From positions 62,001 to 116,051 of the IMG/VR virus record IMGVR_UViG_3300020472_000011: a DNA stretch of 54,051 nucleotides; one strand, 5' to 3'. Below, piece after piece: positions 16,427-27,402 of the stretch (the first letter of the stretch is position 1; every line of letters begins with the position of its first letter). The translations under genes were made by a program, and so were the position numbers. The notes under the pieces were generated by a model. It saw nothing but the letters and a program-made list of their open reading frames with translations, searched no databases and was not told the origin of the DNA. Origin of the DNA: an uncultured virus (IMG/VR IMGVR_UViG_3300020472_000011). Its lineage: Duplodnaviria; Heunggongvirae; Uroviricota; Caudoviricetes.

Positions 16427-16452
16427 AATGCCTCTGTGTTGTGTACTCTCTT

Positions 16453-16509
16453 ATTATAGAGGGAAAAAGACCCCTGTGAAGGGGTCGTGTACCAGTTTGT
16501 CAACTGGTC
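16453..16509 (-). promoter_or_regulatory. Early promoter cassette (palindrome, terminator hairpin, TATAAT)
   Basis: attata 16453-16458; gacccctgtgaaggggtc 16469-16486 with an adjacent A run; accagtt-tgtc-aactggt 16491-16509. Confidence 0.8.
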
Positions 16510-17092: not shown

Positions 17093-17244
17093 GAGAGGAC
17101 TTACAACTTCAAAACTCAAGCAACTAAGTTGACAGTTTCAAACTGTGAGTACAAGAGGTCTCCAAACATAAAGAGCAGTTTTCCACAGCGTGACCCGAAG
17201 ATCATCTGATTGTTGCTCACCCCTGCCTTGCGTTTGCCTCTCAT
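17093..17244 (-). ncRNA. Candidate structured leader RNA (~150 nt)
   Basis: Begins 6-7 nt after TATAAT; closing GAGAGG/CCTCTC stem, GAGCA/TGCTC stem, TGATC-TTCG-GGTCA hairpin, further hairpins. Confidence 0.45.
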
Positions 17245-17617: not shown

Positions 17618-17938
17618 TCATCTTTGGATGACGTATCCATCAAAGAATAGGTCAGTTTGAGAATTGTCACCGATGTACCAGGTGAAATCTCTCTGAAATA
17701 TTCTGAGACCGTACCCAAAGAAATTCTCTAGCAACGCATTCAGTCTTGACTTAGTGGTGACAGTCTCCCAACCTGCACTAGACAGTTGAAGATCGCCATT
17801 GTCATGTACTGTTGCGATGTGATTGTTATGCAAGTAAACCTCAGACCTGTTACCCATGCGATCAACCCGTGTATTTGAATTGGACCAGGTGATGCGGTTG
17901 TTAACTGCTGAGTTCATTTGCTGTTCAATCTTACGCAT
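17618..17938 (-). CDS. Conserved phage early hypothetical protein
   Basis: MRKIEQQMN...VYLHNNHIA...GWETVTTKSRLNALL...IFQRDFTWY. Confidence 0.85.
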   Translation of the reverse strand: MRKIEQQMNSAVNNRITWSNSNTRVDRMGNRSEVYLHNNHIATVHDNGDLQLSSAGWETVTTKSRLNALLENFFGYGLRIFQRDFTWYIGDNSQTDLFFDGYVIQR

Positions 17939-17964
17939 AAGTCCTTTGTGTGTTGTACTCTTCT

Positions 17965-18024
17965 ATTATACACATAAAAAAAGACCCCTGTGAAGGGGTC
18001 GGGTGACAGTTTGTTTACTGGCAC
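17965..18024 (-). promoter_or_regulatory. Early promoter cassette with terminator hairpin
   Basis: attata 17965-17970; hairpin gacccctgtgaaggggtc 17983-18000 identical to 16469-16486; gacagtttgtttactggc. Confidence 0.8.
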
Positions 18025-24853: not shown

Positions 24854-25050
24854 ACTGGTCTCCGTAAGGTCGTTAAGTATTCTAATACATGTGCTCTTAC
24901 TTCCATCAGTTCGTTGAAACACTTCTGATTATGAGCACAACCACGTAACTGGTTATCAGGTTTGTGTACTGATTCTATGTATAAATCCAGTCCACGATTC
25001 CATTTCTGGTCATGTGATTCATGGTCATCAATGGTCTTTTGATCTTTCAT
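24850..25050 (-). CDS. Conserved cyanophage hypothetical protein
   Basis: KWNRGLDLYIESVHKPDNQLRGCAHNQKCFNELM. Confidence 0.8.
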   Translation of the reverse strand: MKDQKTIDDHESHDQKWNRGLDLYIESVHKPDNQLRGCAHNQKCFNELMEVRAHVLEYLTTLRRPV

Positions 25051-25826
25051 AAGAACTTCTTAAGTGGTGTGTGACGTTTAATACGATCATTTGCCATCTT
25101 AACATACTCTTCGTGAATTTCAATACCAATATACTTTCTGTCATGATCTAGACATGATATCGCAGTAGTACCTGACCCCATGAATGGGTCTAGAACTACA
25201 TCATTCACAAATGAATAGTATTGTACAATCTTATCTGATAGTTCTTTAGGGTATGGTGCTAGATGCTTTGATGTAGTCTCAGGATTAAACTGCCATACAT
25301 TTGATCTTTCATAACCATCAGCAACTAATGATTGTTCTAATATATCAGGAGCATAGGAACGCACTGTCTTATCTATAAGAAATGGTGCAGGTTTCTTGAA
25401 TATTAATATAGTCTCTGTAACAAGGTTTGGTTTATATGCTACTGGTTTACGATGCTGATAGAATCCACCGTTACGATTAACAGCAGATCCTTCTGGTTTC
25501 AACCATATAATATCATCAATGTATTGCCATCCCAATCTCTCCATAATACTAAAGAAGTGGAATGGTATCGCAAGTCTCTTACTTTCATGTGCTCTTGACT
25601 CACGTGCTTGTATTACTGGTGATAAATTAACAGCACACATCCTTCCTTGTACTGTGACTCTGTGAACTTCACGGAATATATCCTCAAGGAATTGTAGATA
25701 CTTATCATATGTTGGCCACTGTGCGTATGCCTTTGCATTAAAATATGGAGGAGATGTACACGTAAGGTGTATACTATCTCCATCCATCTCAGTTAAATGA
25801 TTTAATGCATCATCATGTATGATCAT
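25047..25826 (-). CDS. DNA methyltransferase, N4-C/N6-A, beta class
   Basis: Catalytic TSPPY near the N-terminus, SAM-binding VLDPFMGSGTT near the C-terminus. Confidence 0.92.
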   Translation of the reverse strand: MIIHDDALNHLTEMDGDSIHLTCTSPPYFNAKAYAQWPTYDKYLQFLEDIFREVHRVTVQGRMCAVNLSPVIQARESRAHESKRLAIPFHFFSIMERLGWQYIDDIIWLKPEGSAVNRNGGFYQHRKPVAYKPNLVTETILIFKKPAPFLIDKTVRSYAPDILEQSLVADGYERSNVWQFNPETTSKHLAPYPKELSDKIVQYYSFVNDVVLDPFMGSGTTAISCLDHDRKYIGIEIHEEYVKMANDRIKRHTPLKKFL

Positions 25827-26242
25827 CCAATGCTCCTCGATGATGATTTGTTACTGTTGCAGTCTCCATTTAATATTGATTTACGTCCATGACATAGTTT
25901 ACAGTATGTCTTGACATTACTAGGAACATTATTATGATGATCACCATCTAAATGGTCTAGGTCAAGACTAGTCTCAAATCCTACAAATGTGGATACAGGA
26001 CATGTCCATCCTAGATGACCATCGTTGTTTTCGCAATAGTTCTTTTTATGTCTTGTAACATTAGGTCTATCAACTCCTTTCTTACGTGCAGTGGCACAAC
26101 TAGAACATTCTGATTTGAATGACCAGTACTTCCACTCTCTTACCTGTACATTATTATTACAACCATCATTGACACATGTAGGGAGTGTGTGTCCTTCAGA
26201 AAAGAATCTTGCTTTTTGTTGTTGTGATACTGTAGAAGGCAT
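25823..26242 (-). CDS. HNH endonuclease-like protein with Cys pairs
   Basis: LDLDHLDGDHHNNVPSNVKTYCKLCH motif; N-terminal CxxxxC and CxxC. Confidence 0.8.
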   Translation of the reverse strand: MPSTVSQQQKARFFSEGHTLPTCVNDGCNNNVQVREWKYWSFKSECSSCATARKKGVDRPNVTRHKKNYCENNDGHLGWTCPVSTFVGFETSLDLDHLDGDHHNNVPSNVKTYCKLCHGRKSILNGDCNSNKSSSRSIG

Positions 26243-26261
26243 CGTTTAAAATATAATGGGG

Positions 26262-26466
26262 TGTTGAGAGAAACGTGGGGCAATGATCTAGGTTTCACCC
26301 AGTTGCCCAAATTTACCCTATGGGAATCGCTTACACCTGAACCCCCACCACTTTCAACCATCTGTCATGTGCAGTAATAGGTTTCTACCAACGGTCATGT
26401 GTCTGCTTCTAAGTCAGACTAGTCAGTAGGTTTGGGGCATAGGAACCACATCAGTTCCTCTCAACA
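26262..26466 (-). ncRNA. Candidate ~205-nt structured non-coding RNA
   Basis: 13-bp terminal stem UGUUGAGAGGAAC/GUUUCUCUCAACA, several internal hairpins, TATACT immediately upstream. Confidence 0.6.
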
Positions 26467-26469
26467 TTC

Positions 26470-27402
26470 TTAGTATAACGGTAATTTGTTTGGAATGGTG
26501 CGAATACGGTCACTTATTAAACTGTCATACTCCTTATGCAATTCACACCCAATATATGCTCTACTATGTTTCTTAGCAACATATGCGGTAGTGCCACTAC
26601 CCATGAACGGATCTAATACTATATCACCCTTCTCCGAACCTGCGAGGATGCATGGTTCAATGAGTTCTTCGGGATATGTAGCAAAGTGAGCACCCTTGTA
26701 TGGTTTCTTATTTACTGACCAGACAGAGCGTTTATTGCGTTTTGTATATGATTTTGTAAGACCTGTATGCGGTTGGAGTCCTGTTCCTGGATTGTGGTAC
26801 TTACCATTTGTTCTGTCTCTTGTTCCCCAGTCTTTTGCTGGTTCTTTGATTGCTTCGTTATCATAGTGATAGTATTTACTCTTACTTAGTAAAAAGATAT
26901 ACTCATGTGCTTTAGTACAACGATCTCTAACTGACTCTGGCATTGGATTAGGTTTATGCCATATAATATCCTGCCTTAGATACCAACCATCAGCACGTAG
27001 TGCAAATGCAAGCATCCAAGGTATACCAATAAGATCTTTATCTTTGTATCCTACAAGTTTATTAGATCTACGTGGTGTAGTCTTAGGTAAGTCTTGTCTA
27101 TTATTAGAGAATGTCTGCTTAGGTATACATCCATCCTTCCTGTAATTATAATATGAATCACCAATGTTTAACCACAGTGTACCATCATCAGTAAGACAAT
27201 CTCTTACTAAACGAAAGACCTTAACCATATTATCAATATACTCTTCAGGTGATTGTTCCTGACCTAACTGTTTATCTTCATCACCATAGTTTCTCAAACC
27301 ATAGTAAGGTGGAGATGTGACACACATACGTGCCTTCTGTTCTTCATTTGCAATTATCTTGAGTGATTCAAGACAGTCACCAAATAATATGTAATCTTTC
27401 AT
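26470..27402 (-). CDS. DNA methyltransferase, N4-C/N6-A, beta class
   Basis: VTSPPYYGLR, WYLRQDIIWHKPNPMPESV, HFATYP, VLDPFMGSGTT. Confidence 0.95.
   Translation of the reverse strand: MKDYILFGDCLESLKIIANEEQKARMCVTSPPYYGLRNYGDEDKQLGQEQSPEEYIDNMVKVFRLVRDCLTDDGTLWLNIGDSYYNYRKDGCIPKQTFSNNRQDLPKTTPRRSNKLVGYKDKDLIGIPWMLAFALRADGWYLRQDIIWHKPNPMPESVRDRCTKAHEYIFLLSKSKYYHYDNEAIKEPAKDWGTRDRTNGKYHNPGTGLQPHTGLTKSYTKRNKRSVWSVNKKPYKGAHFATYPEELIEPCILAGSEKGDIVLDPFMGSGTTAYVAKKHSRAYIGCELHKEYDSLISDRIRTIPNKLPLY

Follow-up and report, generated by a model that had tools for sequence, protein, structure and literature searches.

The gene-free 205 nt that lie in front of a small HNH-type nuclease gene in a marine virus are, on comparative sequence evidence, a conserved folded RNA domain of about 110 nt, here called core A, together with about 90 nt of cargo inserted at the end of one helix, and this domain is common to many marine T4-like cyanophages. 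The RNA lies in a 54,051-nt stretch (the window) of a 116-kb virus record, whose genes and nearest DNA matches indicate a marine T4-like cyanophage, a relative of the Prochlorococcus phage P-SSM2. Core A has a three-way junction, an arm capped by UGAAA and a near-invariant 20-nt internal loop. Comparison of its copies establishes the helices, the single cargo site, the recurrence of cargo modules, their reciprocal nesting, the reassortment of parts and the fact that core A is tied neither to the HNH gene nor to any other single downstream gene. The preferred reading, to which we give a probability of roughly 40%, is that core A RNA is a free, early-made scaffold that displays swappable modules to host proteins, probably as decoys, and that acts independently of the HNH nuclease. 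The locus runs along the minus strand from one methyltransferase through the RNA and the HNH-type gene to a second methyltransferase, with the following features.

26470..27402, minus strand: upstream N4/N6 DNA methyltransferase (PF01555, E 5e-57)
26472..26477, minus strand: -10-like hexamer TATACT, sharing bases with the upstream methyltransferase's stop codon; the window copy lacks a -35 match
26262..26466, minus strand: whole structured RNA, core A plus cargo (sequence and comparative pairing)
26435..26466, minus strand: core A 5' half, with P1a 5' strand (26465-26458), P1b (26449-26447), GU junction, P2 5' strand (26443-26438) and the start of P3
26347..26434, minus strand: cargo, made of a junction frame, module B1, hairpin B2 and an empty third slot (comparative pairing)
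26429-26385, minus strand: module B1, inner helix 26419-26415/26405-26401, the loop of which is an insertion slot
26384-26356, minus strand: hairpin B2, part of the cargo frame
near 26354, minus strand: empty third slot of the cargo frame, which takes further modules in relatives
26323..26342, minus strand: near-invariant 20-nt internal loop between P3 and P2, the family signature (21-mer identity across copies)
26262..26322, minus strand: core A 3' half, with P2 3' strand (26322-26317), conserved A/U junction (26316-26309), P5 (26308-26303/26283-26278), P6 with the UGAAA loop (26302-26288) and the P1b and P1a 3' strands
25823..26242, minus strand: HNH-type nuclease gene, 139 aa (PHROG HNH matches, E 4e-5 to 1e-3), adjoining the RNA and travelling with the downstream methyltransferase
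25047..25826, minus strand: N4/N6 DNA methyltransferase overlapping the HNH stop codon (PF01555, E 2e-41; type II methyltransferase models)

In core A, P1a and P1b join both ends of the RNA and lead to the three-way junction, from which P2 and the P5/P6 arm extend. The P5/P6 arm ends in a UGAAA loop closed by a G-C pair, and P2 continues through the 20-nt one-sided loop into P3, where the cargo sits. Several elements of the original prediction, which was made from the sequence alone, are indeed present: the TATACT hexamer, a 13-bp terminal stem (26466-26454 with 26274-26262, including one G-U pair), a GUCUG/CAGAC stem, the 3' hairpin with its UGAAA loop and the HNH start codon just downstream, at 26242. 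The segment had also been described as GC-richer; its GC content is raised, but only mildly (0.42-0.44 against 0.35-0.40). Helices P2, P3 and P1b and the division into core and cargo did not appear there. Of the 20 distinct cargo frames, 13 keep the hairpin GGUAG-AAAC-CUAUU that had been drawn. Its rival, helix B1, is complete in every one of the 20 (8/8), as is the B1 inner helix (5/5), with compensatory changes. A 73-aa open reading frame overlapping the RNA (26140-26361) was set aside as a gene because cargo lengths change freely among relatives.

The folding of the window RNA as a single sequence is modest (z = -2.07, with 7 of 200 shuffles equally good). Among 34 cargo-free copies, 97.5% of 815 cells pair and two-sided changes occur in 14 of 24 pairs, in statistics that ignore kinship; none of 500 shuffles of the same copies matches this, and slid controls pair at 37-65%. 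A larger set of 186 distinct copies was obtained from 386 matches by removing 50 incomplete ones and 28 that had no 5' anchor and then deduplicating. The 21-mer is identical in 153 of the 186 listed and one position off in the others, a count that is biased in that this stretch or its neighbour was the search key. All six P2 pairs form in 183 of these 186 copies, through 15 allele pairs; for each copy the best candidate anchor was taken, a choice that favours pairing. P5 is fully partnered in 101/101 copies among the matches listed.

P2 is nevertheless weak in the nearest-neighbour model, with a median probability of 0.25 in empty copies, 0.07 and 0.10 in those with cargo and 0.02 in the window copy. 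The lowest-energy fold of the window allele (-65.4 kcal/mol, against -56.0 kcal/mol for the comparative fold) lacks both P2 and P3. For this allele, the energy model does favour a different fold, which is a point for the two-state switch that had been suggested to gate a toxic nuclease. The competing pairings on which that switch was built are not kept, however. The AGGAAC/GUUCCU pairing against the terminal stem is present in 7 of 101 copies among the matches listed; the one against the 3' hairpin is complete in 54 of the 101, compared with 101 for the native partner, and of the 24 copies in which that strand varies, 2 retain the alternative. Covariation is absent from these pairings, ensemble folding across copies gives no alternative helix that recurs above a mean probability of 0.22, and one near-identical HNH locus has no RNA in this position. 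Since P2 is kept in evolution yet energetically weak, we infer that the RNA folds compactly through tertiary contacts or binds a partner, rather than switching.

A blastn search of 50,697 phage records matched the 3' part of the element only in P-SSM2, P-SSM5 and four single-cell virus records, and its middle piece in P-SSM7 and S-SSM4. The exact 21-mer from the 3' part occurs at no fewer than 120 IMG/VR loci (about 200 estimated), and metagenomes hold at least 119 core A loci (about 350 estimated); a second search key, from the arm neighbouring the 21-mer, added core A variants. The bacterial and archaeal genomes (596 Gb, exact 20-mer only) gave one match, which is read as chance because about one is expected in this amount of sequence and because the other core features are absent. 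Core A is present once per genome in the five genomes searched (5/5), and one contig has two copies. On this contig (L021/L022) the copies lie 909 nt apart, one of them empty and the other with a very large nested cargo.

The cargo of core A ranges from 9 to 226 nt, always at one insertion site. Among the matches listed, 122 distinct complete cores carry 63 distinct cargo sequences: 43 cores are empty, 28 hold a frame of the window type (25 with B1) and 51 hold other cargo. All of these 51 other cargoes start with GAA and end with AGUA, a junction that we take to match the bulged-G/loop E motif. In the frame, B2 pairs 79/80 and 60/60 over 20 distinct cargo frames, and both the B1 loop and the third slot carry further modules in relatives. 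B1 is also found without core A, in P-SSM7 and S-SSM4, and as the central arm of other scaffolds. The nesting is reciprocal: B lies inside core A in 25 copies, and core A lies inside the B1 loop in three clear cases (L054, L079 and L127). In five copies the B 3' strand stands directly behind core A. Identical 3' arms are found combined with up to five P2 alleles and with every cargo class, which points to recombination at short shared sequences. Related contigs that carry core A are not independent events, and for single contigs chimeric assembly may add to the apparent reassortment. The cargo variety is not solely an effect of metagenome assembly, because the core of the isolate P-SSM2 is empty and the four single-cell virus records hold three different cargoes.

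Other modules were observed beside these. At least 27 of 184 copies have, directly 3' of P1 (for example at L260 and L262), a recurrent tail hairpin with a purine-rich loop. A second scaffold, core 2 (L262:1270-1500; L002:2975-3075; L003:1265-1365), has a junction like that of core A with B1 as its central arm, can occupy the same slot before the HNH gene and accounts for 42 of 112 B1 matches. In the window itself, positions 17095-17243 (minus strand) hold a second module-type RNA behind its own -10-like box, with no Rfam match and a single-sequence z of 0.29; a homologue of it, often with a swapped inner hairpin, lies near 16 core A loci.

Comparison with known RNAs indicates that core A is a new family within the orphan structured RNAs of cyanophages, its unusual trait being the reciprocal nesting. 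A cmscan against Rfam 15 gave no match in the window, and none at E<=10 over 26100-26650; the element at 7 + 20 homologous loci had no match either, including to manA, HEARO, PhotoRC, ribozymes and introns. As a positive control, manA was found in 4/4 genomes, away from the element. wcaG (RF01761) had no match on the element, and its whole-genome search matched nowhere, so that this search has no positive control. With no Rfam 15 match and with covariation in both core and cargo, the proposal of a new phage non-coding RNA is borne out, as is the statement that it is neither tRNA nor tmRNA, for ARAGORN reports no such gene in the window or the genome. Likenesses to the pistol ribozyme, the T-box and the tRNA T-arm were dropped for want of Rfam support and because the base at position three of the putative T-arm can be U, A or G. 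No description of the core A family was found in the literature, where the supplements of PMC10690425 or PMC2864571 could hold it unnamed. The searched part of the PMC10690425 supplements, which list over ten thousand viral candidate RNAs, gave no match, and core A may be listed in them without a name. Neither Prochlorococcus nor the word marine occurs in the Minerva preprint.

The closest counterparts are manA (RF01745) and wcaG, cyanophage RNAs that have been without a function since 2010. They are likewise orphan structured RNAs, about 100-200 nt long, that the same phages carry beside varied genes (PMC2864571). Like core A, manA starts just behind a sigma70-type promoter. Unlike both, core A takes exchangeable cargo and serves as cargo itself, and it has no covariance-model match to them; in P-SSM2, manA is 86 kb away (142.8 kb against 56.7 kb). 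The manA copy of S-SSM4 (L130:1500-1700) has the 9-nt loop ending of core A before a helix strand, and the other three manA copies have a variant of it, which suggests a shared motif vocabulary among cyanophage RNAs.

Another comparison is offered by the PeSL cassettes of the T4-type phages RB49 and phi1, described as promoter-linked non-coding elements of variable early regions that are shuffled by recombination, about 50 per genome, with simple terminator stem-loops at or before the start site (PMC2839356). Core A resembles them in its sigma70-like early promoter and in a pattern of shuffling that suggests recombination. It differs from them in numbering about one per genome rather than dozens, in lying after the -10 box and in having a multi-helix fold with invariant loops in place of a terminator stem-loop. 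The window also contains, at 16434-16500 and 17936-18020 (minus strand), repeated cassettes in which an early promoter overlaps a terminator-like stem-loop; these are PeSL-like.

That the RNA serves the HNH nuclease, be it as partner, guide or on/off switch, can scarcely be credited. The original prediction had drawn the analogy with HEARO/OMEGA RNAs and had itself proposed that homologues be checked for an adjacent HNH gene. The idea has in its favour the adjacency in the window and six close relatives and the competing low-energy fold of the window allele, and the likeness to HEARO/OMEGA RNA with IscB (RF02033), a structured RNA 5' of an HNH gene, holds in the window only. By that check the partnership is refuted: adjacency seldom recurs. 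HNH relatives are encoded at 57 loci, and among the 51 with enough upstream DNA core A is absent from 45 and present at six, all of them at least 90% identical to the window HNH; conversely, an HNH gene is found at 2 of 121 core loci among the matches listed, in a set where only 68 elements have at least 400 nt downstream. Near-identical loci are empty or hold a different RNA: L256, a 98%-identical HNH-methyltransferase locus, has no RNA between the -10 box and the ATG, L259 and L261 are empty too, L260 has an empty core plus a tail hairpin, L262 a different scaffold and L253 an extra module. Between filled and empty loci the whole spacer is replaced, with no target duplication.

The protein fits no better. 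HEARO/IscB proteins combine RuvC, HNH and an Arg-rich region (PMC9755519). The window protein (139 aa) has weak HNH matches alone and no RRXRR or RuvC-family match, in agreement with the earlier remark that RuvC and IscB features are missing, and a search of solved structures gave nothing under E 0.15. The window system thus differs from HEARO/OMEGA in its protein, in the absence of an Rfam match and of co-inheritance, the RNA not being consistently 5' of the nuclease, and in having no free guide, because the RNA 5' end is paired. Since HNH is rare at core loci, the core rare at HNH loci and near-identical HNH loci exist without the RNA, the two are chance neighbours, and judged by these sequences core A is dispensable at the HNH locus. 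A methyltransferase follows the HNH relative directly in 45 of 53 loci with enough downstream DNA. As HNH tracks the methyltransferase and the RNA is optional, HNH is best read as half of a nuclease-methyltransferase cassette, possibly a candidate restriction-modification-like or homing unit, and the RNA as an optional occupant of a slot behind the promoter. The cassette of small HNH and N4/N6 methyltransferase (window 25047-26242, minus strand; L253-L309) recurs in many viral contigs, mostly immediately after an early promoter.

The promoter setting bears on whether the RNA is free or part of a message. In 54 of 101 listed copies, against 5 of 99 control windows, P1 is preceded by a -10-like hexamer whose end lies 0-12 nt away, mostly 5-6 nt (34 of the 101), so the RNA would often start a transcript; the TATACT of the window itself is absent from the promoter-scan matches. 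Behind core A, among 184 copies listed, an ORF follows within 45 nt in 71, another RNA module in 66 and neither in 47. The first ORFs (94 in 26 clusters, some of them spurious) are mostly without assigned function, and the neighbours include small early-region genes, methyltransferases and one anti-restriction family. Eleven chosen loci of the class with neither were read by eye: two end about 5 nt before a tRNA-Thr gene, four run into an intrinsic terminator and five into the next promoter. With no message behind them to regulate, such copies favour a free RNA. In the two tRNA cases (L439:267-341, minus strand; L504:379-453, plus strand), tRNA 5' processing would set the 3' end of the RNA.

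Core A is also present in 18 runs recorded as RNA, from marine metatranscriptomes, as contigs that carry no strand, ends or level. Contigs of run X1 match the window exactly across RNA and HNH, and in seven RNA runs no joint skipping the element was seen, where contigs show presence only. Contig depths in run X4 add up to about 3,600 over the invariant core and to 10-70 on its flanks, figures that sum related phages and may include DNA. Depth was set aside as evidence of RNA level or ends, because of this summing and possible DNA, because run X1 is contrary (methyltransferase motif 551, core 190) and because X6, X15 and X20 are shallow (depth 2-5).

Under the free-scaffold reading, an early sigma70-type promoter would start transcription at about the base of P1. 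By joining both ends, P1 would allow the RNA to be cut from a longer message, and tertiary contacts or a partner may stabilise the weak P2. Co-infecting phages would exchange modules by recombination at short shared sequences, and the modules would be shown to host proteins as putative decoys. A precedent for a non-coding decoy RNA is pseudo-ToxI of phage PhiTE, which is reported to change by recombination and could target host proteins in trans (PMC3475682). It differs in being a tandem repeat that copies a known antitoxin, whereas core A and its cargo have no known host counterpart. The reading is favoured by the lack of a fixed downstream gene, by covariation in both core and cargo and by the copies with no gene behind them. 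It is weakened by the copies that lead into an ORF, by the position of about half of the copies at a predicted +1, by the window's lowest-energy fold, by the dispensability of the core at the HNH locus and by the few matches in phage records.

A cis-acting 5' leader, whose fold would protect or boost whichever early message follows while its modules tune stability or translation, fits the downstream ORFs equally well; the short distance from -10 box to P1 and the absence of a terminator before HNH in the window also agree with it. We consider it doubtful, since some copies have no gene behind them and some are buried as cargo in another RNA, there is one copy per genome despite many early units, and conservation goes far beyond what a protective stem needs. 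Compatible with the scaffold, and unlikely, is a manA-like self-assembly in which loops with GNRA-like and T-loop-like motifs build RNA-only oligomers or cages, with the cargo altering valency or geometry. One report describes manA RNAs that form 8-, 10- and 60-mers in vitro through kissing loops and GNRA-receptor contacts (10.64898/2026.07.01.735769), and the promoter-proximal position and the S-SSM4 loop ending are shared with core A; against this, the 9-nt match occurs in one of four manA copies inspected, model-level similarity is absent and core A yielded no loop-loop pair with covariation. Self-complementary loops were given no weight, since short palindromes often arise by chance.

The invariant junction and loop nucleotides and the marginal P2 would suit a riboswitch-like aptamer sensing a metabolite or signal. 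This is improbable, as the genes downstream are not coherent and no conserved terminator, ribosome-site overlap or alternative fold that could serve as expression platform was found. More improbable still are selfish or catalytic modules, such as ribozymes or miniature mobile elements inserting into each other: nesting at loop positions and the filled and empty versions of one locus recall them, but whole spacers are replaced without target duplication, copy number is low, no Rfam ribozyme or intron matches, and no RVT_1 reverse transcriptase was found in 3/3 genomes (the control matched in 3 of 14).

A broader picture, which we put forward tentatively as one possibility, is of a combinatorial toolkit: marine cyanophages would maintain independently folding RNA domains that insert into one another's loops, either way round, and would reshuffle them among themselves to assemble custom multi-domain early RNAs, the RNA analogue of modular anti-defence proteins. 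The domains may serve as decoys or aptamers, each for a different host factor, and may be displayed on self-assembling scaffolds. If the modules are decoys, they would point to new host defences or regulators in Prochlorococcus. Core A is a natural compact display scaffold, tolerant of cargo across its whole size range. Mutually nesting RNA domains are an unusual design, and core and cargo can be studied separately because the cultured phage P-SSM2 carries a natural empty version (NC_006883.2, near 56.70-56.82 kb).
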